Positions 1 to 12,553 of a stretch of 12,553 nucleotides of DNA are shown piece after piece. Position numbers and translations under genes: made by a program. The stretch is from a virus (taxonomy: Duplodnaviria > Heunggongvirae > Uroviricota > Caudoviricetes): IMG/VR virus record IMGVR_UViG_2695420747_000002; one strand, written 5' to 3'. The notes beneath the pieces were generated by a model, which made no database searches, was not told the DNA's origin, and was given only the letters and a program-made list of their open reading frames with translations. Numbering within the stretch: position 1 is the first letter of the stretch; each line of letters begins with the position of its first letter.

Positions 1-1
1 T

Positions 2-160
2 CCGAAACTGAATGGAGTGGCTGGCCCGGCATTCCAGGTCATAAAAGACAGTCTGACACTGGGGCTGAATGCGCTGACGTTAACTGATATCACTAAAAAT
101 GCCGCGTACGGCGTCGATATCGGCAGCCTGGTGCTGGAAATCAATAATCCCGCAGTATAA
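2..160 (+). CDS. 3' end of an unidentified upstream phage gene (partial, start outside window)
   Basis: Open frame from the window edge to TAA at 158-160, 23 nt before the R start. Position matches the end of the lysis/late block in P2-like phages, but I do not recognise the peptide (..GVDIGSLVLEINNPAV*). Confidence 0.35.
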   Translation, partial: PKLNGVAGPAFQVIKDSLTLGLNALTLTDITKNAAYGVDIGSLVLEINNPAV

Positions 161-183
161 GGAAGAGCAGGAGAGCAAAACAG

Positions 184-651
184 ATGCTTAAGACAAACAG
201 TCTGCGAGAGTCCATGCTTCATGGATGTCGGTGGTGCCAGGCTAATCCCGAGAAATTCACCATTTTCGTGGAGAGCGGCAACATTGAAACGACCGGAGAA
301 ACGCCCTCGTTTGTTTACCGCTATCAGATGGTGATGTTTGTCATGGATTACGCCGGAGAGCTGGACGACCTCACGCTGCCGCTGCTGGCGTGGTTATCCG
401 AAAATCAGCCACAGTTGTTGCTCAATCCGGAGCGTAATCAGGACATCAAATTTTCCGCCGTTATCAATGACGATGACAGCGCCGATCTCCTGTTTACGCT
501 CCCCCTGCGGGAACGCGTTCGCATTACGCGCAACAGTCAGGGGACACCGCAGGCAGAACACCTGCAGGAGCCAAAACCCCGTCTGCCCTCTTCCGAAGGC
601 GACTGGTCGCATGTATTCCAGGATGTGACGTGGGGTGAAAGCGATGGATAA
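184..651 (+). CDS. R: tail completion protein, P2 gpR-like
   Basis: 155 aa ORF, the same length as P2 gpR, with recalled similarity (MLK..SLR.., LAWL.ENQP). GGAGAG RBS upstream; lies directly before S-V-W-J-I-H. Confidence 0.65.
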   Translation: MLKTNSLRESMLHGCRWCQANPEKFTIFVESGNIETTGETPSFVYRYQMVMFVMDYAGELDDLTLPLLAWLSENQPQLLLNPERNQDIKFSAVINDDDSADLLFTLPLRERVRITRNSQGTPQAEHLQEPKPRLPSSEGDWSHVFQDVTWGESDG

Positions 652-1279
652 GGCATTCACCCGCGTGGATGAAACCTTTGAGGCCATCCGCGACAGCCTG
701 AATCAGCAGGCCATCAATAACATCGCCAGAAAGCTGGCACAGGATTTACGCCGCGCCCAGCAGGCGCGTATCCGGTCACAGAAAGCGCCGGACGGGACCG
801 CATGGACACCACGCAGACGCCGCGTAACCCGGATACAGGAACGTATTCGCTTTATCTGGAATAACGAAGCACGCACGCTGAAAAACTGGCATCACGACAC
901 GGGGAAATACGGGCGAACCATTACCGGGTGGGATGAGGATAAAAACAATATCCGCACGTTTTACCGGGATGACATCGACCGTTTTCTGGAAATACGCACC
1001 CGGCGCATCAACCAGGACAGCACAAAGCGCGTCCCCATGTTCGTAAAACTGCGCACCGCCCGCTACCTGAAAGCCGGTGCAGATGCTTCCGGTGTGACGG
1101 TGGGTTACAGCGGCGTGGCCGCACGTATTGCACGCGTTCATCAGTTCGGTGAGCGCGATCAGGTTTCGCCGGGCATTTTCACCGATTACCCGGTACGTGA
1201 GCTGTTGGGTATCAGCCAGGCAGATGAACGCCTGATTTATAACACCGTGCTGGGCCGGATTGCGGAGGCTGTACGGTGA
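635..1279 (+). CDS. S: virion morphogenesis / tail completion protein, P2 gpS-like, longer than P2 S
   Basis: ORF-track start is GTG at 635; ATG at 644 overlaps the R stop (ATGGATAA) and is an equally plausible start. C-terminal region (..ARIARVHQFGERD..) resembles the gpS family; position between R and V. Confidence 0.55.
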   Translation: MKAMDKAFTRVDETFEAIRDSLNQQAINNIARKLAQDLRRAQQARIRSQKAPDGTAWTPRRRRVTRIQERIRFIWNNEARTLKNWHHDTGKYGRTITGWDEDKNNIRTFYRDDIDRFLEIRTRRINQDSTKRVPMFVKLRTARYLKAGADASGVTVGYSGVAARIARVHQFGERDQVSPGIFTDYPVRELLGISQADERLIYNTVLGRIAEAVR

Positions 1280-1857
1280 GCGCAGAACTCATGCGACTGC
1301 TGAGCAACATCATCCGCACCGGGATCATCTCTGAAGTTGATGAGAAGTCCTGGCTCGTGCGCGTTCGCAGCGGCGAACTGGAAACAGGCTGGCTGCGCTG
1401 GAACACCACGCGCGCGGGAGCCTTCAATGTGTGGCTGCCGCCATCACCAGGCGAACAGGTGGTAATTGCCTGCATTGGCGGCAACCCGGAAACCGCCATG
1501 ATAATCGGCAGCCTGTGGAGTGATGCCATTCCGGCACCCGGCAAAAGCCTGAAAGAAATCGTGGTCAGCGCGCCGGATGGCGCGGTGTTCCGCTACGACG
1601 CGGACGCAGGCGCACTGAGCGCCAGCGGCATGAAAACAGCCACCCTGCAGGCATCCGTCAGCGTGACACTGGACACGCCCGTCGTGGAATGCACAGACCT
1701 TCTGAGAACTGCGATGCTTGACGTCACAAAAGGAGGAAAGATGAGCGGCAATATCACGCACAGCGGCGGCAACTTCACCTCAAACGGCATTACCGTGCAT
1801 ACGCATAAACACGGTGGCGTGAAAGGTGGCAGCGATTCGACAGGAGGCCCGCAGTGA
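1276..1857 (+). CDS. V: baseplate assembly protein V (spike), P2 gpV-like
   Basis: 193 aa; GTG start overlaps the S stop (GTGA). Recalled gpV motifs (NIIRTGII.., ..HTHKHGG..); position in the V-W-J-I order. Confidence 0.8.
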   Translation: MSAELMRLLSNIIRTGIISEVDEKSWLVRVRSGELETGWLRWNTTRAGAFNVWLPPSPGEQVVIACIGGNPETAMIIGSLWSDAIPAPGKSLKEIVVSAPDGAVFRYDADAGALSASGMKTATLQASVSVTLDTPVVECTDLLRTAMLDVTKGGKMSGNITHSGGNFTSNGITVHTHKHGGVKGGSDSTGGPQ

Positions 1858-2204
1858 CAACCCGCTACACAGGAATGAATCCGGACGGGACGGGAAACCT
1901 GAACGATATGGAGCACCTGAAACAGTCAGTCAGGGATATCCTGACCACCCCGCTGGCAAGCCGGGTTATGCGACGGGAATATGGCAGCCTTGTGCCTGAT
2001 TTGATTGACGAACCCATGAATAACACCACGCGTCTGCAATGCATGAGTGCTGCCGTGATTGCGCTGACACGATGGGAACCCCGCATTGCCCTGGATGCCA
2101 TCGACGTTGTCTGGAAAGCGGGAGGCCGCGCCGGGGTGACGCTGTCGGGCACTGTCATGCAGACCATGCAGAATGTTGAATTAACCATCACGCTAAGGGA
2201 GTAA
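1854..2204 (+). CDS. W: baseplate wedge protein W (GPW/gp25 family)
   Basis: 116 aa against 115 aa for P2 gpW; GTG start overlaps the V stop (GTGA) and is preceded by AGGAGG; synteny. Confidence 0.75.
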   Translation: MTTRYTGMNPDGTGNLNDMEHLKQSVRDILTTPLASRVMRREYGSLVPDLIDEPMNNTTRLQCMSAAVIALTRWEPRIALDAIDVVWKAGGRAGVTLSGTVMQTMQNVELTITLRE

Positions 2205-2207
2205 ATC

Positions 2208-3104
2208 ATGCCCGCCGTTGACCTTTCACAGTTACCGGACCCCGCCATCATCGCGGAGCCTGACTTTGAGGCAATTCTGGCTGACACAAAGGCCATGATA
2301 ATTGCGGCTTATCCCGCCGAACAGCGTGAAGCCGTTTCCGCCGCGCTGGAGCTGGAATCGGAACCCCTTAACGTTATCGCTCAAACCATGTCTTTTCGTG
2401 AAATGCTGTTACGCCAGCGGGTTAACGAGGGGGCACGCGCCTGCATGTTAAGCCACAGCGCCGGGACAGACCTGGACAACCTAGCGGGCAATATGAACAC
2501 AAAGCGCCTGGTTATCACTCCGGCAACGGATACCACCGACGCGGTGATGGAGAGCGACACCTCGCTGAGACTGCGGGCGCAGCGGGCGTATGACGGCCTG
2601 AGTGTTGCTGGCCCGTCAGGTGCATACGAGTATTTTGCACGCAGCGCCAGCGGTCTGGTGCGTGATGCGCGGGCCATCAGCCCGTCTCCGGCCTGTGTGA
2701 CGGTTTCCATTCTGTCCACTGAAGGCGACGGCACAGCAACGGAGGCGTTGCTTAATACCGTTCGCGCCGTTCTGAATGCAGAGGATACCCGCCCGGTGGC
2801 CGACCGCCTGACGGTACAGAGCGCCAGCATCGTGACATGGCGGCTGAATGCAAAACTGTACTTTTATCCCGGCCCGGAATCCGAACCTATTCTGGCCGCG
2901 GCGGAATCGTCATTCAGGAAGTGGCTGGCTGAACAGGGGCTTATCGGTCAGGACGTGGCGTTGTCCGCCATTGCTGCCGCACTGCATGTGCACGGTGTGC
3001 AACGCGTGGAGATAACCGAACCCACACAGAATATGGCCATCAGCGACATACAGGCGGCGCGCTGTGAGTCATTCACCATCAGCGAAGGTGGGCGCAATGA
3101 GTAA
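2208..3104 (+). CDS. J: baseplate protein J, P2 gpJ-like
   Basis: 298 aa against about 302 aa for P2 gpJ; AGGGAG RBS before the ATG; synteny between W and I. Confidence 0.8.
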   Translation: MPAVDLSQLPDPAIIAEPDFEAILADTKAMIIAAYPAEQREAVSAALELESEPLNVIAQTMSFREMLLRQRVNEGARACMLSHSAGTDLDNLAGNMNTKRLVITPATDTTDAVMESDTSLRLRAQRAYDGLSVAGPSGAYEYFARSASGLVRDARAISPSPACVTVSILSTEGDGTATEALLNTVRAVLNAEDTRPVADRLTVQSASIVTWRLNAKLYFYPGPESEPILAAAESSFRKWLAEQGLIGQDVALSAIAAALHVHGVQRVEITEPTQNMAISDIQAARCESFTISEGGRNE

Positions 3105-3705
3105 TTCACTGTTACCACCATCAGCCAGCAATTTCATGCGTTGTGCCGAAGCCGTCGGAACACGCATTACAGACATTCCGGTAGACCTCAACACGCTGTG
3201 GTCGCCGGACACCTGCCCGGTGCATCTGCTGCCTTATCTCGCCTGGGCGTTTTCCGTTGACCGCTGGGATCGCAACTGGCCGGAAGAGACAAAGCGACAG
3301 GTGATTCGTGATGCATGGCTGACACACCGACACAAAGGGACCATCAGCGCACTGCGAAGAGCCGTGGAGCCTCTCGGCTACCTGATTGAAGTAAAGGAGT
3401 GGTGGCAACTCAACGAGGAGCCAGGAACATTTCGCATTGTTGTCGGAGTACTTGATCAGGGCATCACCGATGAAATGTATCAGGAACTTGAGCGCCTTAT
3501 TGCGGATGCAAAACCAGTAAGTCGCCATCTGACGGGGCTGGCGATCAGCCTGAGTGTGAACGGAAAGATTTTCGTTGGTACGGGATGCTATCACGGCGAT
3601 GCCCTGACGGTTTATCCCTACACCCCGGAGTCTATTATTGTCGAAGGGGATTATTTCCCTGCCCCGGCCATTCATTTAATTGATAATCTGAGAGTAAACG
3701 CATGA
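3097..3705 (+). CDS. I: baseplate / tail protein I, P2 gpI-like
   Basis: The ORF track gives 3064, but ATG at 3097 has an AGGTGG RBS and overlaps the J stop by 8 nt, so it is the likelier start (202 aa). Sits directly before the tail fibre gene. Confidence 0.7.
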
Positions 3706-5717
3706 CAGCGAAATACTACGCCATTCTGACTAATCAGGGCGCGGAACGACTGGCTAACGCGACGATGCTCGGCAGTAAGCTGAATTTGACGCAAATGGCC
3801 GTTGGTGATGCAAATGGTGTGTTACCAACACCAAACCCTGCACAAACAAAACTGATTAACCAGAAACGCATTGCACCGCTGAATCTTCTGAATGTTGACT
3901 CTAACAATCAGAGCCAGATTATTGCGGAGCAAATCATCCCTGAAGACGAGGGAGGATTCTGGATCCGTGAGATTGGTCTTTATGATGATAAAGGTGTACT
4001 CATTGCGGTGGCAAACTGCCCGGAAACGTACAAACCGCAGTTGCAGGAAGGCAGTGGACGCACCCAGACTATCCGCATGATTCTGGTTGTCACGAACACC
4101 AAAGCCATCACGCTGAAAATCGACCCGTCTGTGGTTCTGGCAACCCGCAAATATGTGGATGATAAAATCTCAAAGCACGAGCAGTCACGACGTCACCCGG
4201 ACGCCTCGCTGACCGCAAAAGGCTTTGTTCAACTCAGTAGCGCCACTAACAGCGATTCTGAAACGCTGGCTGCAACGCCGAAAGCGGTTAAGGCCGCGTA
4301 TGACCTTGCTAACGCAAAATATACCGCTCAGGACGCCACGACGGCACGAAAAGGCATTGTCCAGCTCAGTAGCGCCACCAACAGCGATTCAGAAACGCTG
4401 GCGGCAACACCAAAGGCGGTAAAGGCAGCCTATGACCTTGCTAACGGGAAATATACCGCACAGGACGCCACGACGGCACAAAAAGGAATTGTCCAGCTCA
4501 GTAGTGCAACCAACAGCACATCTGAAACGCTTGCTGCAACACCGAAAGCAGTGAAAGCAGCTAATGACAATGCGAATGGTCGGGTACCTTCTGCCCGTAA
4601 GGTGAATGGTAAGGCGCTTTCGGCGGATATAACACTGACGCCGAAAGATATTGGTACGCTTAACTCAACAACAATGTCATTCAGCGGTGGTGCTGGTTGG
4701 TTCAAATTAGCAACGGTAACCATGCCACAGGCGAGTTCTGTTGTTTCAATTACGTTGATTGGTGGCGCTGGATTTAACGTCGGTTCACCTCAACAGGCAG
4801 GTATATCTGAACTTGTTTTGCGTGCAGGTAATGGTAATCCGAAGGGGATTACTGGTGCTTTATGGCAGCGCACATCGACAGGGTTTACAAATTTTGCCTG
4901 GGTCAATACATCTGGTGATACTTACGATATTTACGTTGCAATCGGAAATTATGCGACTGGTGTAAATATTCAATGGGATTATACCAGTAATGCCAGCGTG
5001 ACGATTCATACGTCACCAGCATATTCTGCTAATAAGCCGGAAGGGTTAACGGACGGTACAGTTTATTCACTCTATACGCCATCAGAGCAGTTTTATCCGC
5101 CTGGCGCACCAATCCCGTGGCCATCGGATACCGTTCCGTCTGGTTATGCCCTGATGCAGGGGCAGACTTTTGACAAATCTGCATACCCAAAACTTGCAGC
5201 GGCTTATCCGTCAGGCGTGATCCCTGATATGCGTGGCTGGACGATTAAGGGCAAACCCGCCAGTGGCCGGGCCGTATTGTCTCAGGAACAGGACGGCATT
5301 AAATCGCACACCCACAGCGCCAGCGCATCCAGTACGGATTTGGGTACGAAAACCACATCGTCGTTTGATTACGGGACGAAAACAACCTCACTATTTGACT
5401 ATGGGACCAAAACTACCAGTAACGACGGGAGTCACACGCATTCAATACCAACATCAGATGGTGCAAACCAGGGGGGGAAAATTCCACTGACATCTGGGCG
5501 TCTGGCAACTCAATATACATCAGCAACAACAGGTTCCTCTGGCTCACATTCTCATACTGTAGGTATTGGTTCTCATCAGCACACTGTCGGTATTGGTGCA
5601 CACACGCACTCCGTTGCGATTGGCTCACATGGACACACCATCACCGTTAACGCTGCTGGTAACGCGGAAAACACCGTCAAAAACATCGCATTTAACTATA
5701 TTGTGAGGCTTGCATAA
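3702..5717 (+). CDS. H: tail fibre protein, P2 gpH-like N-terminus with lambda Stf-like C-terminus
   Basis: 671 aa. N-terminus has the P2 gpH motifs ([67 protein letters not shown]). C-terminus ..[16 protein letters not shown] is the conserved end of lambda-type side tail fibres. ATG overlaps the I stop (ATGA). Confidence 0.9.
4218..4570 (+). repeat. in-frame tandem repeat inside the tail fibre gene (135-bp unit, about 2.6 copies)
   Basis: Units at 4218-4352, 4353-4487 and a partial third from 4488 encode GF/[43 protein letters not shown]. Copies differ by scattered, mostly synonymous substitutions. Confidence 0.75.
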
Positions 5718-6295
5718 TGGCATTCAGAATGAGTGAACAATCACGGACCATAAAAATTTATAATCTACTGACCGGAACCAATGAGTTTATTGGTGAAGGT
5801 GATGCATACATTCCACCTCATACAGGTCTGCCAGCAAACAGTACCGATATTGCCCCGCCAGATATTCCGGCTGGCTTCGTGGCCGTTTTCAACAGTGATG
5901 AGGCATCGTGGCATCTCGTTGAAGACCATCGGGGTAAAACGGTTTATGACGTGGCATCAGGGGACTCGTTATTTATTTCTGAACTCGGTCCATTACCGGA
6001 AAATGTTACCTGGTTGTCGCCGTATGGAGAGTATCAGAAGTGGAACGGCACATCCTGGGGGAAAGATGCAGAAGCAGAAAAACTGTTTCGGATAAGGGAG
6101 GCGGAAGAAACAAAAAACAGCCTGATGCAGGTAGCCAGTGAGCATATTGCACCACTTCAGGATGCTATAGATTTAGATATTGCGACGGAGGAAGAGACAT
6201 CGTTACTGGCTGCATGGAAGACATATCGAGTATTGTTGCATCGTGTTGATACAACAGTAGCAGCAGATATTGAGTGGCCAGTCGCCCCACAATAA
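5717..6295 (+). CDS. tfa: tail fibre assembly chaperone (Tfa family; functional equivalent of P2 G)
   Basis: 192 aa; begins [52 protein letters not shown].., which I recall as near-identical to lambda/E. coli Tfa proteins. ATG overlaps the H stop (TAATG). Confidence 0.9.
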
Positions 6296-6332
6296 AAAGA
6301 AAAAGCCATCGATAGAAATATCGATGGCTTTA
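6296..6332. terminator. hairpin shared by the converging tfa and acetyltransferase genes; intrinsic terminator for the minus-strand gene, at most weak in the plus direction
   Basis: Perfect 13-bp inverted repeat AAAGCCATCGATA (6302-6314), loop GAAA, TATCGATGGCTTT (6319-6331). Minus-sense it is followed by TTTTTCTTTTTT; plus-sense it follows the tfa stop by 7 nt. Confidence 0.6.
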
Positions 6333-6338
6333 TGTACT

Positions 6339-6911
6339 CTATTTATACAATACAGCACCGCTCTTTTTAGTTATATATGTGCAGTTCGATGGTATATCTT
6401 TATTTATAAAAGACATTGCACCTATTTTTACATTATCCCCAATTTTACGGGATAATCCAATGATGCAACAATTAGCTCCGATATCAACGTTGCTACCAAT
6501 TTTTACTCTTGAACCAGGTATGTCACCATCTATCTGTCCAATGGTCGTATTCTGTCGTAACACCAGATTTTCACCAGCATCAACAGCAAAATGAACAACA
6601 ATTCCAGCATGATGGGGAATTGTTAACCCTTTTCCAATATTTGCGCCCAATCCAATTTCGCAACCAAATTTGTTAATTATTTTACTGTTTAACTTCTTGG
6701 CTGCTTTCTTATGTAATTTATTACCATTAATATACATTTCGTTAGCCAACCGCCACCAGAAAAGGAAATTCCTGTTACGCTGCTTTTTCTCTCTTAAAAG
6801 CCTCCAGATATCCATACGTTTCCGCCGAATTACTTCATGTTTCCAGAAGTTTTTTAAATTAGTAGAGTTCCCAAATAAAACAAAGTGAATTGCCATTAGG
6901 TAAGACAGCAC
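6339..6911 (-). CDS. hexapeptide-repeat acyltransferase, serine O-acetyltransferase (CysE/WbbJ/WcaB)-like; cargo (moron) gene
   Basis: Left-handed beta-helix repeats (GCEIGLGANIGKGLTIPHHAGIVVH..., ..KIGSNVDIGANCCIIGLSRKIGDNVKIGAMSFINKDIP) align by eye with the CysE catalytic domain, including a His in the position of the catalytic His. The ORF is open to GTG at 6944, but GTG at 6911 follows AAGGAG (6918-6923) by 6 nt and is the likelier start; ATG at 6896 is another option. Markedly AT-rich compared with flanking genes. Confidence 0.7.
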   Translation of the reverse strand: MLSYLMAIHFVLFGNSTNLKNFWKHEVIRRKRMDIWRLLREKKQRNRNFLFWWRLANEMYINGNKLHKKAAKKLNSKIINKFGCEIGLGANIGKGLTIPHHAGIVVHFAVDAGENLVLRQNTTIGQIDGDIPGSRVKIGSNVDIGANCCIIGLSRKIGDNVKIGAMSFINKDIPSNCTYITKKSGAVLYK

Positions 6912-6962
6912 GATAATCTCCTTAATTATTATTTCAGACCACACATGTTATAAGGTTAAGAG

Positions 6963-6991
6963 ATTATAAAATCCTGTTGTTTATTATTCAA
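6963..6991 (-). promoter_or_regulatory. candidate sigma70 promoter for the acetyltransferase gene
   Basis: Minus-sense TTGAAT (6991-6986), 17-bp spacer, perfect TATAAT (6968-6963), AT-rich upstream; about 45 nt upstream of the preferred start. Confidence 0.45.
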
Positions 6992-7067
6992 AAACAATTT
7001 TCTGAGAAGGACATACAACAGCAAGTCGCCAGTCACCTTCATCAGGAAATTGGCGACATACGTTAAA

Positions 7068-7562
7068 TCAGAGCAGCCCCTTAACTGAGCTGGCCGCGCT
7101 ATTAAGGGATGATGTCACCTTATCTTTGAAGCCGGACAACATATCGCTGAACGATGAGGATTGCAGGCGCTCCCGCAAATCCTCATCACAGCGTTCAAGA
7201 GTCAGTGAAAATTCTATCTTTTTCGCCTTACCGTAGCGATCAAACTCGGAACGGGTCGTATTCGTTTCAGTCAGTACATACATGCCGTAAATCTGCCCGA
7301 CACCATCAATCAGAGGCCAGGGCCGTCCTGTATATGCCTGCGTGGTCAGCAATGAAAGCGACACTTCGCCACCTGTAATTTCAGGATAAAGCACGCCGGA
7401 AAGCACAATGCGATCATCACCTGCACCGATATACTGCCAGCTTGCTGAACGGTTAACGCGTTCATTTTTCACATGCCGCCAGCTTTTGTTTTGCTGTAAC
7501 TGCTGATGCGGCAATGTGCGCAGCTCAAAAACAAACATGCCGTAGATCATCATCATGACCAT
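7068..7562 (-). CDS. U: tail protein U, P2 gpU-like
   Basis: 164 aa against 159 aa for P2 gpU. Recalled motifs (MMM..GMFVF...LPHQ, GVLYPE.TGG, PW.L.DG.G.IYGMYV, ..F.LTL.R.DE); GAGGAG before the ATG; directly downstream of T. Confidence 0.8.
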   Translation of the reverse strand: MVMMMIYGMFVFELRTLPHQQLQQNKSWRHVKNERVNRSASWQYIGAGDDRIVLSGVLYPEITGGEVSLSLLTTQAYTGRPWPLIDGVGQIYGMYVLTETNTTRSEFDRYGKAKKIEFSLTLERCDEDLRERLQSSSFSDMLSGFKDKVTSSLNSAASSVKGLL

Positions 7563-7568
7563 GACTCC

Positions 7569-10385
7569 TCAATCTTTATCGTAAAAACTGCCACGTCCGG
7601 CACGGGCGCGCCGTTCCATCTCTGCCCTGACCATTTCACCGACCAGTTTCGCCAGTTCGCGGGGATTCTGCGTAACAACGTTATGCAGATGAACATGAAT
7701 TTCACCGCAAAATCCGGAGACAGCAGGCTCCCGGTTACGGGAAGTTGCAGGAACTGATGCCACTGGCGATCGTATGGCCTCCGCCACCGGGCGGGAGCTG
7801 GCCGCAACAACAGGGACCAGCGCCGGAGGCAGCGGAGCCGAGACCACGGGTGTGATATTAATTGCGGGGGCAGGCTTACTGACCTGCGCAATCTTCTGCT
7901 CCTGCCACTCCCCACGAACAGCAAGTGCGCGGGGCAGGTTCTTAAAGACAATATCGCCGGGGCCAATGCGTTTTTTCGTCTCATCAACCAGCTTACCTGT
8001 GTTATCAGCAATTTTGCTGAGTCTGCGTAGCGTCCCGGTATTGCTGTCTGTGAGCGGTTTGTTGTCTTTGGGTTTATCACCTCCGGTGCCATTGCCATTT
8101 TCCACAGGCTTCGGCGGATTGATTTTCGCCAGGTCCCCCTGAAGCAAGGCAACCTTGTCCTGAAGAATGGCCGCACGCTGTGCGTCTTCGATTTTCTTGC
8201 GCGCCCTTTCCGCTTCATCCGGAAGGACACCAAGTTTTTCAAGTATCCACGCCAGCGTATCCAGTAGCATTTTTGCAGGTGTCAGAACAAGTTGTAACGC
8301 ACCGCCAAGAACGTTACCGAATACCTCGCCAGCACTGGTGCATTTATCCAGCGTTTCCTTGCTGGACTCCATCGGTGACAACAGCGATTTAAACCAGTTA
8401 AACACCAGGCTGATCCCGCTTCCGATTGCGTCAAAAACAGGGCCAAACCGTTCAAAGGTTTCACGCAACGGGGTCAGCCTTTCCATAATCCCGCTGAACA
8501 CCCCGGCAAAAAATGCCCTGATGGGATCCCAGTATTTCCAGATAAGAACGGCAGCTCCGGCAAGCGCAGCCACGATAAGACCAACCGGACTGAACAGCGC
8601 CCCGATAGCGCCACCCAGCAAAGAAACAGAACCCGTCACCATTCCCCACAGCGCAGGCAACACCCTGATGACATTCATTGACCGGGTAAGAATGTCGAAA
8701 CCAAGACGCAAGGTGGCCAGCTTCCCGTAAAGCACCCCAATAACCAGCGACAACGAGCCAATCGTTGCAGTCATTGCCAGCAACGCACCGCCTGCTATCA
8801 GTAGCTGGCGCGTCAGTACCGGATGGGCCTGCGCCAGCGAGGTGATTTTTTCAAGCACCCGCGTGAGCCACTGCGTGACAGAACGCAGCGGACCGTCAAC
8901 CAGATCACTGATGCGAATACGAAGACCTTCCCATGCGCTGTCGAGATTTTTCAGGTCTCCATCAAGATTATCGGCCATTACTTTTGCAACGCGATCGGCC
9001 TCTCCCCTTGCCCCCTGCAATTCTCTGGTCAGTTTTTGCAGTTCTCCTGAACCAGCCGCCGCAACAAGCGTCTGCAAACCAACGAACGCCTCTTCTCCGG
9101 CAATGTCCTTGAAGAAGGAGACCTGGTCCACCTGTCCGTATTTTTGTGTCGCCTTATAGAGATCAAGCAGCACATCCTCCATCGGGCGCATTTTGCCTCT
9201 GGCGTCAGCAACTGACACCCCCAGCTCTTTCAGTGCATCAGCCGCAGCTTTTGGCGGTGATGCAAGGCGGGACAGACTTGCGCGCATGGCCGTACCAGCA
9301 TCGCTTCCGCGAAGACCATTATTGGCAAGCATCCCGGCCATGGCCGCCGCTTCTTCAAGACTGATACCAAGTTTTGCGGCAACCGGACCGGTATACTTCA
9401 TGGTTTCGCCCAGCGCGCGTAAATCAGTATTGGTCCGGGTGAATGCTGCTGTCAGCGTATCGCCAACCCGGTCCATTTGATCGGCTGTCAGGTTGAACTG
9501 TGTGAGGATATTGGAGCCTATATCAGCCGTCTCGCCGAGTTCGACGCCACCTGCCAGCGCCATATTAAGAACACCGGGCAATGCGGCCTGAATGGCCTGC
9601 GGAGTAAAACCAGCCATTGCCAGAAAGCTCTGCCCACTGGCGGCATCACTCGCAGTAAACTGTGTTTCAGAACCAAGTTTTAACGCCTGCTCACGCAGCG
9701 CCTTAAACTGCGGGCTGTTTTTGTCGATTCGCGTCAGTGCCTGAACGCGGGACATCTCTTTGCCGAACCCGATCGCAGGCTGCAAAAAACGCCCGGCAGC
9801 ATAGCCGCCAGCCGCTGCAGCACCAATTGCCAGCGCACCACCTGTTTTCAGTTTTCCCGCGGTTTCCTGCGCGCGCGAATACCGCTCACGCGCCCGCGTT
9901 ACACGCGCAAGCGCCTGCCGTTCGCGTTCAAGCTGGTTGTTGTACTGTTCGGTGCGTCTGATGGCCTGCTGGATGGTGTTATCGCTGCCTGTCAGGGAAA
10001 TGCCGTGGCGTTTCAGCTCTCCGCCAAGCTCCCGCATTTTCTGAATTTCCCGTGTGCGCGATTCATTCAGGCGTTCAAGCCGGGTGCTTAACTGCTGCAT
10101 CAGCTTTTGTTGTTTTTCGCTGAGCACTGTACCCGTGCGTTGTAACTGATTAAGGGCGTTAAGCTGGCGTCGTGCTTTCACGATGCCAGCATCCGCTTTA
10201 CTGACAGCGTCACGGGCGCGCTCAAATGAACGCGCCTGACGCTCGAGATTTTTGATCGCCCCCTGCGTTCGCTGGATGGAGTCACCAAACTGCCCCATCA
10301 GGCGGCGGGCGTTTTCGGCAGGCCGGGTCAGCCTGTCAACGGCGCTGAAAGCGACCCGGATATCAAGAGTCTTCATTATCTGCAT
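7569..10385 (-). CDS. T: tail tape measure protein, P2 gpT-like
   Basis: 938 aa with a coiled-coil-rich N-terminal third, Gly/Ala-rich hydrophobic central segments and a position between E/E' and U, all typical of tape measure proteins. Confidence 0.85.
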   Translation of the reverse strand: MQIMKTLDIRVAFSAVDRLTRPAENARRLMGQFGDSIQRTQGAIKNLERQARSFERARDAVSKADAGIVKARRQLNALNQLQRTGTVLSEKQQKLMQQLSTRLERLNESRTREIQKMRELGGELKRHGISLTGSDNTIQQAIRRTEQYNNQLERERQALARVTRARERYSRAQETAGKLKTGGALAIGAAAAGGYAAGRFLQPAIGFGKEMSRVQALTRIDKNSPQFKALREQALKLGSETQFTASDAASGQSFLAMAGFTPQAIQAALPGVLNMALAGGVELGETADIGSNILTQFNLTADQMDRVGDTLTAAFTRTNTDLRALGETMKYTGPVAAKLGISLEEAAAMAGMLANNGLRGSDAGTAMRASLSRLASPPKAAADALKELGVSVADARGKMRPMEDVLLDLYKATQKYGQVDQVSFFKDIAGEEAFVGLQTLVAAAGSGELQKLTRELQGARGEADRVAKVMADNLDGDLKNLDSAWEGLRIRISDLVDGPLRSVTQWLTRVLEKITSLAQAHPVLTRQLLIAGGALLAMTATIGSLSLVIGVLYGKLATLRLGFDILTRSMNVIRVLPALWGMVTGSVSLLGGAIGALFSPVGLIVAALAGAAVLIWKYWDPIRAFFAGVFSGIMERLTPLRETFERFGPVFDAIGSGISLVFNWFKSLLSPMESSKETLDKCTSAGEVFGNVLGGALQLVLTPAKMLLDTLAWILEKLGVLPDEAERARKKIEDAQRAAILQDKVALLQGDLAKINPPKPVENGNGTGGDKPKDNKPLTDSNTGTLRRLSKIADNTGKLVDETKKRIGPGDIVFKNLPRALAVRGEWQEQKIAQVSKPAPAINITPVVSAPLPPALVPVVAASSRPVAEAIRSPVASVPATSRNREPAVSGFCGEIHVHLHNVVTQNPRELAKLVGEMVRAEMERRARAGRGSFYDKD

Positions 10386-10901
10386 TCCCGCTGCGAAGTG
10401 CCGCCCGCTCGCGCCAGCTAACCACTTCGCCGGGCGTCATCATGAAGATTTCGGCGGGCGACCAGTTAAAAATGGCGGCAATATCCGCCACCAGATCTTC
10501 GATGTGCTCAAAGCACACCAGGGTGATTACGCTGCCGTCTCCTGCACGCTCTTCGCGCCAGAGTCTGGCTCGCTCATAAAATTTACAGCCACTGCGCACA
10601 ACTGAATAAAATCGCGTGACGACATTTTTTTAATCATCACTTCATCCAGTCGTGGCGAGGTCACGCGAGGCAACAGCGTAAACATGGTATCCGCTTTCAG
10701 ATTCAGCACATCAGACAGCGACAGACCACGCAGGGATCCAGCCTGCTCAATAGCCCCGGTGATCTCCACATACGTGATTTTTTCGCCACCACGCTCAATT
10801 GGTCGGGTCAGTTTTACGCCACGTTCGACAGCCATATCCTCACCTGCCGTCACATCATCCGCCACGGTGTTATTCCGGGTTTCAGTATCGATGTCTTTCA
10901 T
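10363..10901 (-). CDS. tail assembly chaperone E+E' (predicted programmed -1 frameshift product)
   Basis: The -1 frame relative to E opens just after a TAA (10632-10630) at the A7 run and stays open for about 88 codons to TGA at 10363-10365, overlapping the T start. Same arrangement as P2 E/E+E' and lambda G/GT. Confidence 0.55.
10527..10901 (-). CDS. E: tail assembly chaperone E, P2 gpE-like
   Basis: 124 aa; AAGGAG 7 nt upstream of the ATG at 10901; lies between FII and T and contains the slippery A-run at about codon 91-92. Confidence 0.75.
   Translation of the reverse strand: MKDIDTETRNNTVADDVTAGEDMAVERGVKLTRPIERGGEKITYVEITGAIEQAGSLRGLSLSDVLNLKADTMFTLLPRVTSPRLDEVMIKKMSSRDFIQLCAVAVNFMSEPDSGAKSVQETAA
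10624..10632 (-). other. putative -1 ribosomal frameshift site (A7 run) for E+E'
   Basis: E-frame codons ATT AAA AAA ATG; the second tRNA-Lys can re-pair one nucleotide back on AAA. The -1 frame has a stop immediately 5' and is open 3' of this run. Confidence 0.5.
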
Positions 10902-10956
10902 CAGTTGTCTCCTTTTCAGTCAAAGGCGACGCACTGCGCCGCCTGCATATTACTTA

Positions 10957-11469
10957 TCAGCCAAGCCCAAGCGCGGAACGGATACGGTCAGGCACAATGT
11001 CCTTGCCGTCCTTCCGGTAGATGTGGTTCAACAGGTCGATTTCCCACAGCGGGCGATCGTTAACGCTCAGCTTGTAGTAGGTGTTTTTGACAGCGTAAGT
11101 GTGTGATGTGGCTTCGCCCTGTTTGGCTTCCCCCATATCAATTTCCGTCACACGCCCGCGCATCTCGATTTCATACAGATCGCTTTCTGCATCGGTGTAG
11201 TATTCACCCGCAAAACGCAGCAGCGTGCCGTCAATCGTGCCGCCATATTTAAGGAACAGCGCACGAACAGCTCCCCCCATGACAAAACTCGCATCAAGCG
11301 CGGAGTCGTCCAGACCGAGATCAATACTTACCGCCCCCATCATGCCACCACCACGATAGCTGTCGGTTTTGCGCGTCAGTTTGGGCGGCGTGACGGATGT
11401 CACTTTACCCACTTCGTTTTCACCATCCACAAACAACGTAAAAAAGCGAAGATGTTTTGGTACAGCCAT
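10957..11469 (-). CDS. FII: tail tube protein, P2 gpFII-like
   Basis: 170 aa against 172 aa for P2 FII; recalled motifs (..TPPKLTRK...YRGGGM.G...DLGLDD.AL, RGR..EID.GE.KQGE); ATG overlaps the FI stop (TGATG). Confidence 0.85.
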   Translation of the reverse strand: MAVPKHLRFFTLFVDGENEVGKVTSVTPPKLTRKTDSYRGGGMMGAVSIDLGLDDSALDASFVMGGAVRALFLKYGGTIDGTLLRFAGEYYTDAESDLYEIEMRGRVTEIDMGEAKQGEATSHTYAVKNTYYKLSVNDRPLWEIDLLNHIYRKDGKDIVPDRIRSALGLG

Positions 11470-12422
11470 CAGGCACCTCCCAGCACCGCAAATGCGGGAC
11501 CAAAGAATTCATCAGTAAACGTCTGGTAAAGCTCCATGTCTTCCAGCGGGGGAACAGGCGTATATTTGTAGCGAATACGCACACGTCCCTGACGTAAATT
11601 CGTGGTGCCGTTATCCACCACGTCATACCAGCACTCCGCACCAATCAGTTTCCCGGCAGTAACCAGCGAATCCAGTTTTGCCCTGATGGCGCTGATAACA
11701 TCCTTCACGTTCGCAGGTGTCAGTGGACTGTCGATGGTTTCAAACTGCGCTTCCGCAATTGAATCAGCCAGCACCTGTGCGGTTCGGGTATACACCTCAA
11801 AGATGTAGGCGTTCGTTTCCGGTGTGCGGTTGCCCCAGAAGCGGAACCCGTTGCGACGAATAATGGTCGTGATTTCTTTGTTGTTGAGGCTATTGGCATC
11901 GCTGTCTTCGGCCTGCAACGACCAGAACACATGCCTGGACATTCCCAGCACATTTTTAACCGGAACGTTGGACAGCGATTTGTGCCAGCCCTGCTCATGG
12001 TCAATGCACGCACGAAGGCCGCACGCATAAGCAGGCGCGGGGAACGTTTCGTTTTTGCCACTTTTCGGGTTGTAGGCGATGAAGTCCGGCCATAAGAGCA
12101 TCACCTCACGTTCGTTGAATTTCTGGCGGTAGGTAATCGCCTCAGCCATCGTGTTACAGCCGTGACATGAGGCATACACAAACGCGCGCAGTTTACCTGC
12201 AATCACGCACAGGGATTTTGTTACAGCCTCCGTGTCCAGCTCCGGCGCGGCCAGAATACGCGGACGGTATCCGATGCTTTCATCCTGCTCTGCAACAAGC
12301 AGCGCATACATCCCCGTATAGCTGCCGTCATCCTCAGAACCACCGATAACCAGTTGATCCTGCGTCTTTCCGTCTTCTTCTTTGTGTTCAGCCACGCGAA
12401 CGACGATCACCTTTGTGCTCAC
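11469..12422 (-). CDS. FI: tail sheath protein, P2 gpFI-like, N-terminally truncated and probably non-functional
   Basis: 317 aa with recalled sheath motifs (PRILA.P.LDT, KLRAF.Y, YRQ.F..RE.M..WPDF, EQGWHK.LSNV, IRR.GFRFWGNRT, YTPVPPLE). Similarity continues 5' of the GTG at 12422 up to an in-frame TGA at 12480-12482, with no ATG or RBS; about 60-90 N-terminal residues expected of a roughly 396-aa sheath are missing. Confidence 0.7.
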   Translation of the reverse strand: MSTKVIVVRVAEHKEEDGKTQDQLVIGGSEDDGSYTGMYALLVAEQDESIGYRPRILAAPELDTEAVTKSLCVIAGKLRAFVYASCHGCNTMAEAITYRQKFNEREVMLLWPDFIAYNPKSGKNETFPAPAYACGLRACIDHEQGWHKSLSNVPVKNVLGMSRHVFWSLQAEDSDANSLNNKEITTIIRRNGFRFWGNRTPETNAYIFEVYTRTAQVLADSIAEAQFETIDSPLTPANVKDVISAIRAKLDSLVTAGKLIGAECWYDVVDNGTTNLRQGRVRIRYKYTPVPPLEDMELYQTFTDEFFGPAFAVLGGA

Positions 12423-12519
12423 CTGGTCTGCGATGGCCTTAAGCGCACGATAAAGCGTCCCCGTTGTCCCTAATGCCGATCAGTTAAGGATCAGTTGACC
12501 GATCCAGTGGCTGTGTAAG

Positions 12520-12553
12520 AATCCGGAAACGCTCACTTGTTTCCGGATTTTTT
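12520..12553 (+). terminator. plus-strand intrinsic terminator-like hairpin at the window edge
   Basis: AATCCGGAAAC (12520-12530), loop GCTCACTT, GTTTCCGGATT (12539-12549), then TTTT running to the window end. No plus-strand gene precedes it in the window. Confidence 0.45.

Follow-up and report, generated by a model that had tools for sequence, protein, structure and literature searches.

What cut short the tail sheath gene at the edge of this viral sequence, and does the break mark the end of the prophage? The window, by which we mean the entire 12,553-nt stretch analyzed (one strand of the Caudoviricetes record IMGVR_UViG_2695420747_000002), closes with a minus-strand sheath-like frame that lacks its beginning, followed by a hairpin and a short plus-strand frame. 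A sequence-only reading took these features together as a deletion or insertion junction marking the prophage boundary. The evidence assembled here points to another answer, to which we assign a probability of about 0.93: the insertion sequence IS4 (1426 bp) transposed into a P2-like (P88-like) E. coli prophage, within codons 62–65 of its tail sheath gene, and the window ends 83 nt into the left end of the element.

What survives of the P2-type sheath gene is its 3' part, recognized by DNA homology, protein alignment and Pfam at 11469..12470 on the minus strand: 1002 nt, comprising codons 62–394 and the stop codon. When aligned to the 394-aa sheath protein of E. coli 55989, whose gene is intact (1185 nt), the remnant is identical at 333/333 residues (62–394), and what is missing is the 61 N-terminal residues, 1–61 (183 nt), which puts a figure on the N-terminal loss that had been suspected from the sequence. 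As also noted earlier, the minus-strand frame extends up to an in-frame TGA at 12480..12482 (IS4 positions 10–12), running from there to its stop at 11469–11471. The earliest start codon available in this frame is the GTG at 12422, and the sole Shine-Dalgarno-like AAGG upstream of it lies at ~14 nt, too distant to serve, such that the absence of a start codon and ribosome binding site is borne out as well. Pfam matches the remnant to Phage_sheath_1 and Phage_sheath_1C, and Gp18_domIII_N, which covers residues 28–87 of the full sheath protein, is absent. The tail tube gene (10957..11469, minus strand; Pfam Phage_tube on an identical protein) lies directly downstream and adjoins the remnant, as in the P2 gpFI-type layout, where a sheath of ~394 aa is encoded directly upstream of the tube; the E, T and U genes follow at 7068–10901 on the minus strand, in the gene order of the 55989 annotation. 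Lacking residues 1–61, Gp18_domIII_N and the start codon of a contractile tail sheath protein of the P2 gpFI type, the remnant is a fragment of such a sheath and not an intact member.

Two other accounts of the shortened frame, both of them raised by the sequence-only reading itself, were tried and rejected. The loss is not a sequencing error near 12480 masking a full-length frame: across more than 1,300 genomes, the match to intact sheath genes breaks off sharply at 12470, and from 12471 onward the sequence is that of IS4. Nor is this a naturally short sheath: each of the tube-protein neighborhoods looked up carried a 394-aa sheath, including those of ten further assemblies with an identical tube protein, and a database look-up for a 317-aa, GTG-started sheath product found no gene on record. 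Compared with the sheath genes of the P88-like phages P88, 500465-2 and P884B11 (genus Xuanwuvirus), the remnant is 97–99% identical in DNA but is without residues 1–61, the start codon and the promoter. It is a start-less, promoterless pseudogene fragment, not a short functional variant.

The sequence beyond the break (12471..12553, plus strand) is the first 83 nt of IS4, that is, its left end upstream of the transposase gene. A megablast query with 12471–12553 retrieved 2,632 E. coli records at a coverage of at least 80%, all with at least 90% identity, and among the matches listed the annotation was IS4 transposase throughout. The match to the IS4 copy in the lambda-like phage record H109 is perfect (83/83); over the 83 nt inside the window there is no sequence difference from IS4 of Escherichia coli (InsG transposase), the type element of the IS4 family and a member of the IS4 subgroup. 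Positions 12471..12488 on the plus strand form the left terminal inverted repeat, TAATGCCGATCAGTTAAG, which is the imperfect 18-bp repeat starting with TAATGCC that characterizes IS4, and 16 of its 18 positions match the right repeat, TAATGCCAGTCAGTTAAG, which lies outside the window. In the full IS4 situated between ebgA and ebgR in FDAARGOS_1285, alignment shows identity to the window from TAATGCCGATCAG... to ...TTTCCGGATTTTTT; past the window end that copy reads one T and then ATGCACATTGGACAG, the start of the 442-aa transposase (...GGATTTTTTT-ATGCAC). By this alignment the transposase ATG would begin two bases past the window end (12555), and the window ends one T short of it. Full IS4 copies sharing this left end measure 1422–1426 bp, and the single DDE transposase that they encode contains the Pfam domains Nterm_IS4 and DDE_Tnp_1. 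The inverted repeat, the leader and the hairpin ahead of the transposase ATG are all shared with the reference element.

The puzzling features at the junction, i.e., the TGA, the short frame and the hairpin with its T-run, are all part of IS4, located in the inverted repeat, the leader and the element preceding the ATG, respectively. The plus-strand frame described earlier (VKDQLTDPVAV*) does exist: it has 14 open codons, ends at TAA 12516–12518 and is closed upstream by TAA 12471–12473, which are the first three bases of IS4. Its assignment to the tail of a disrupted host gene was mistaken, because the whole frame falls within the left end of IS4, where that initial TAA closes it; it is the non-coding leader of IS4. 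Similarly, the hairpin that had been called an orphan precedes the transposase ATG in every reference copy and is a constant part of the element.

The idea that the junction is the prophage boundary, in which the phage DNA gives way to the final codons of an interrupted host gene and to an orphan terminator of the host, can draw on the abrupt end of sheath homology at 12470 and the unrelated sequence after it. That sequence is, however, IS4 and not host DNA, and the candidate host frame is closed at 12471–12473 by the element itself. Moreover, prophages in E. coli 55989, JNE132847 and ET826 match window positions 1–12470 with 100% identity, each match stopping at 12470, and in 55989 the phage extends past the corresponding point: 183 nt of sheath, an intergenic region, a divergent gpD-like gene, ogr and hok/gef come next, and only ~2–3 kb beyond the sheath junction does the host region with tRNA-Leu/Cys/Gly, pgsA and uvrC begin. 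Other hosts show the same order of sheath, gpD, ogr and hok before varied host genes. Where a prophage–host junction (att site) would have to lie, phage sequence thus goes on in 55989. The boundary interpretation is highly improbable, and 12470/12471 is not the end of the prophage; of the original proposal, the insertion junction and the loss of the sheath 5' end stand, and the boundary does not.

The relatives used in these comparisons are P2-like (P88-like) prophages, and the closest phages belong to the genus Xuanwuvirus (97–99% DNA identity). Several features of this group are worth recording in their own right. The gpD-like gene of 55989 (L043 16667–17520), which lies ~0.4–1.3 kb beyond the equivalent of window position 12553, is short (266 aa vs. 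369 aa in most relatives) and has a small pseudogene fragment upstream; even ahead of the IS4 insertion, this prophage lineage may have been defective. Within the window, a gene annotated in 55989 as serine acetyltransferase (6339–6944, minus strand) sits between the tail fibre assembly gene and gpU, in the position of a phage cargo gene (moron); the same place is occupied in other relatives by a resolvase/invertase or by another tail fibre assembly gene. The gpE gene (10527–10901, minus strand) is accompanied by a 51-aa GpE-family open reading frame (~10363–10518) that overlaps the start of the tape-measure gene, and together (window 10363–10901) they are arranged like the E/E' tail chaperone pair that P2 produces by programmed frameshift; PGAP lists them as separate genes. 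In the ten assemblies with an identical tube protein (L044–L053), the tail module adjoins different host genes (serS, the pheT/ihfA region, the pgsA-tRNA cluster and others), and various cargo genes, namely PIN_4, DUF2971 and DUF3800, occupy the interval between gpD and ogr. These contexts suggest that phages of this group integrate at many sites and vary in what their cargo slot holds.

One finished genome provides a close counterpart to the junction in the window. E. coli CE0021a (NZ_CP119006.1) carries a complete 1426-bp IS4 at the identical sheath nucleotide in the opposite orientation, flanked on both sides by the 12-bp duplication CCCCGTTGTCCC, and the N-terminal sheath stub is present on the far side of the element. 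The broken gene is annotated there as two pseudogenes (PY722_RS20055 and PY722_RS20065); of its parts, PGAP labels the 195-nt 5' stub 'missing C-terminus' and the 1002-nt 3' part 'missing N-terminus'. The window holds one copy of this target sequence, at 12459..12470, and a second copy is expected at the far end of its IS4. Because both ends of IS4 share the inverted repeat, CE0021a matches the window up to 12488. The two cases thus have the gene, the nucleotide and the 12-bp target in common, whereas the orientation of IS4 is opposite and the prophage backbones are ~90% identical overall; given its opposite orientation, the CE0021a insertion is therefore an independent event.

A metagenome contig, OFMA01004469.1, has the same junction in the same orientation as the window and ends inside IS4. 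Its backbone is 97.6% identical to that of the window, with 129 mismatches in 5,464 nt, some of them less than 200 nt from the junction, and its insertion is probably a third event. Across 5,426 complete E. coli genomes, CE0021a was the only one with IS4 at this site among the matches listed, and the exact junction and orientation of the window occurred in none of these genomes, again among the matches listed. Exact-pattern scans of species-representative genomes for the junction and for the predicted reciprocal junction gave no match, and the corresponding scan of metagenomes for the junction returned a single contig. Taken as a whole, the sheath site looks like a recurrent IS4 target.

These parallels also bear on whether the junction could be an artefact of assembly, with 83 nt of IS4 misjoined to an intact sheath gene at a repeat. 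The window does end in a multi-copy repeat, as short-read contigs often do, and other viral contigs (e.g., L017, L021, L023 and L041) as well as the metagenome contig (L004) end inside the IS4 left end. But the join coincides exactly with the tip of the IS4 inverted repeat, an independent metagenome contig with a different backbone shows the same junction, and the same nucleotide is used in the finished CE0021a genome: mis-assembly would not give a perfect transposon-end junction at a known target, and we regard an artefact as extremely improbable.

To place the sheath site among other IS4 targets, flanks were gathered from IS4 copies in 38 viral contigs. The target duplications of these copies are 12–14 bp and are clean in most of the full copies examined. 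An A-run precedes the junction by 17–20 nt and is mirrored by a T-run on the opposite side, and G is frequent at −1 and −4; the sheath site, GATAAAGCGT-CCCCGTTGTCCC-GCATTTTCC, fits this pattern. A position-weight matrix of the target arms, built from 37 non-redundant flanks, ranks the sheath site 88th among 18,418 positions (top 0.5%), a placing that is consistent with the preference of IS4 without the matrix having predicted the site. Members of the IS4 subgroup generate target duplications of 10–13 bp and show marked conservation in the target arms (PMC2266710, Table 1), and the sheath insertion site fits both properties, with 12 bp measured in CE0021a. In the literature searched on IS4 target choice and end structures, the only statement found was a general one, in PMC2266710.

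Two further prophage sites contain IS4 in both orientations (L011, L013 and L015 vs. L026; L010 vs. L016 and L030), and several IS4 targets resemble bidirectional terminators, e.g., AAAAAAGGCACCATTTCTGGTGCC followed by a T-run. Among older work, Mayaux et al. in 1984 reportedly derived AAA-N20-TTT as the target consensus of IS4, and the sequence of the element is said to have been the subject of a paper by Klaer et al. in 1981.

One full IS4 copy in the viral collection, L039 (IMGVR_UViG_2874945390_000002), lacks a target duplication, and the sequences on its two sides are unrelated; its right flank is the same sequence as that on the right of the L038 copy, which suggests recombination between two IS4 copies. 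Such events need to be weighed for the window itself, where the far side of the element lies beyond the last base: in place of a simple insertion, there could have been an IS4-associated rearrangement, in the form of a deletion next to the element or of an inversion or recombination involving two copies. The 5' part of the sheath gene, gpD, ogr and perhaps host DNA would then have been lost or relocated, and what remains of the prophage would effectively stop at the junction. With up to 32 matches to the IS4 left end per E. coli genome there are copies that could recombine, and L039, with its non-matching flanks, shows that this occurs. The CE0021a insertion at the same site is nonetheless a simple one, with its 12-bp duplication and its stub in place; the breakpoint in the window lies exactly where a primary insertion is expected, at a site used independently elsewhere; and clean duplications of 12–14 bp are the rule in the full copies examined. 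We therefore consider a rearrangement unlikely.

The hairpin at the left end of IS4 occupies 12517..12553 on the plus strand (stem 12517–12531 / 12538–12552, loop 12532–12537, T-run 12548–12553). Folding confirmed the GC-rich, plus-strand hairpin and T-run described earlier: the stem has 15 pairs, the free energy is −18.8 kcal/mol (z = −5.6), and none of 200 shuffles was equally stable. The window contains six T of the run, and reference copies have a seventh; in full IS4 copies the hairpin is present directly before the ATG. The CE0021a copy carries a T-to-C change within it, which turns a G-U pair into G-C. A consensus terminator scan left the hairpin unlisted despite its terminator-like shape, probably since the scanned stem takes up most of the T-run. 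At the right end of a full copy outside the window (L002 4403–4428), an inward-facing, terminator-like hairpin with a T-run, GCCAGTCAGTT-AAGC-AACTGACTGGC followed by TCTTTTTC, forms a mirror image of the left one and overlaps part of the right inverted repeat and the transposase stop codon.

Consensus matching also places a sigma-70 promoter-like site at 12495..12522 on the plus strand (TTGACC, 16 nt, TG-n-AAGAAT, the last element reading TGtAAGAAT). It is the sole promoter-like match in 12200–12553, where shuffled sequences lead to an expectation of 0.1, and a full IS4 copy contains it too, making it a candidate promoter of the transposase gene. On the minus strand, the promoter scan found no promoter reading out of the left end of IS4 by which the sheath remnant might be expressed. 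From the candidate promoter, the mRNA of IS4 would start at ~12529, within the 5' arm of the hairpin, and would therefore be unable to form the left hairpin; for RNA beginning at ~12530, no significant folding is predicted (z +1.4). Toward transcription that arrives from outside the element, the left-end hairpin appears terminator-like, and, judging by consensus and folding, it may either stop read-in transcripts from neighboring DNA or mask the translation start on them. Together, the hairpins at the two ends would block transcription entering the element from either flank.

Protection from outside transcription has reportedly been described for IS10 by Davis, Simons and Kleckner in 1985 and for IS50 by Krebs and Reznikoff in 1986. 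In IS10 and IS50, the end structure forms only on read-in transcripts, the element's own promoter starting inside the structure, and it hides the ribosome binding site. The predicted layout of IS4 is similar in that its own promoter would also start inside the end structure; it differs from both in that the structure also resembles an intrinsic terminator and has a mirror-image counterpart at the other end. We found no description of such an insulation layout for IS4, with inward hairpins and a promoter that starts within the left one, in the literature searched.

The consequences for the phage would follow from the position and orientation of the element. The transposase gene of IS4 faces away from what is left of the sheath gene, and late transcripts initiated at the sheath promoter would enter IS4 through its right end and be stopped there. 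The sheath gene would be split into an N-terminal stub of 65 codons, ending at the TAA in the tip of IS4, and the start-less, promoterless 333-aa remnant, and the tube, E, tape-measure and U genes would be cut off from the late promoter, leaving the segment from the sheath remnant to U (7068–12470, minus strand) silent. Because the downstream tail genes would lose their promoter, the prophage should be unable to build a contractile tail, and it is predicted to be tail-defective.

In kind, this is an event that is already known: an ordinary IS4 insertion disrupting a structural gene of a prophage. For annotation, the sheath open reading frame is to be recorded as a pseudogene fragment interrupted by IS4, and the prophage is to be scored as tail-defective, without its end being set at 12470. 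More generally, when a window or contig ends in a multi-copy insertion sequence, its edge can pass for a deletion junction that has an orphan terminator beside it. Of minor biological note, IS4 has used one and the same sheath nucleotide in unrelated strains and in both orientations, and such repeated use of one site illustrates the narrow, dyad-symmetric target choice of the element. It is a tentative proposal, to which we give somewhat less than even odds, that sheath codons 62–65 are a recurrent natural target of IS4 in both orientations and that each end of IS4 has a terminator-like hairpin facing inward, the left one containing the point at which transcription from the element's own promoter starts. 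If both were true, IS4 would act as a sequence-directed and fully polar inactivator of a widespread family of E. coli prophages.
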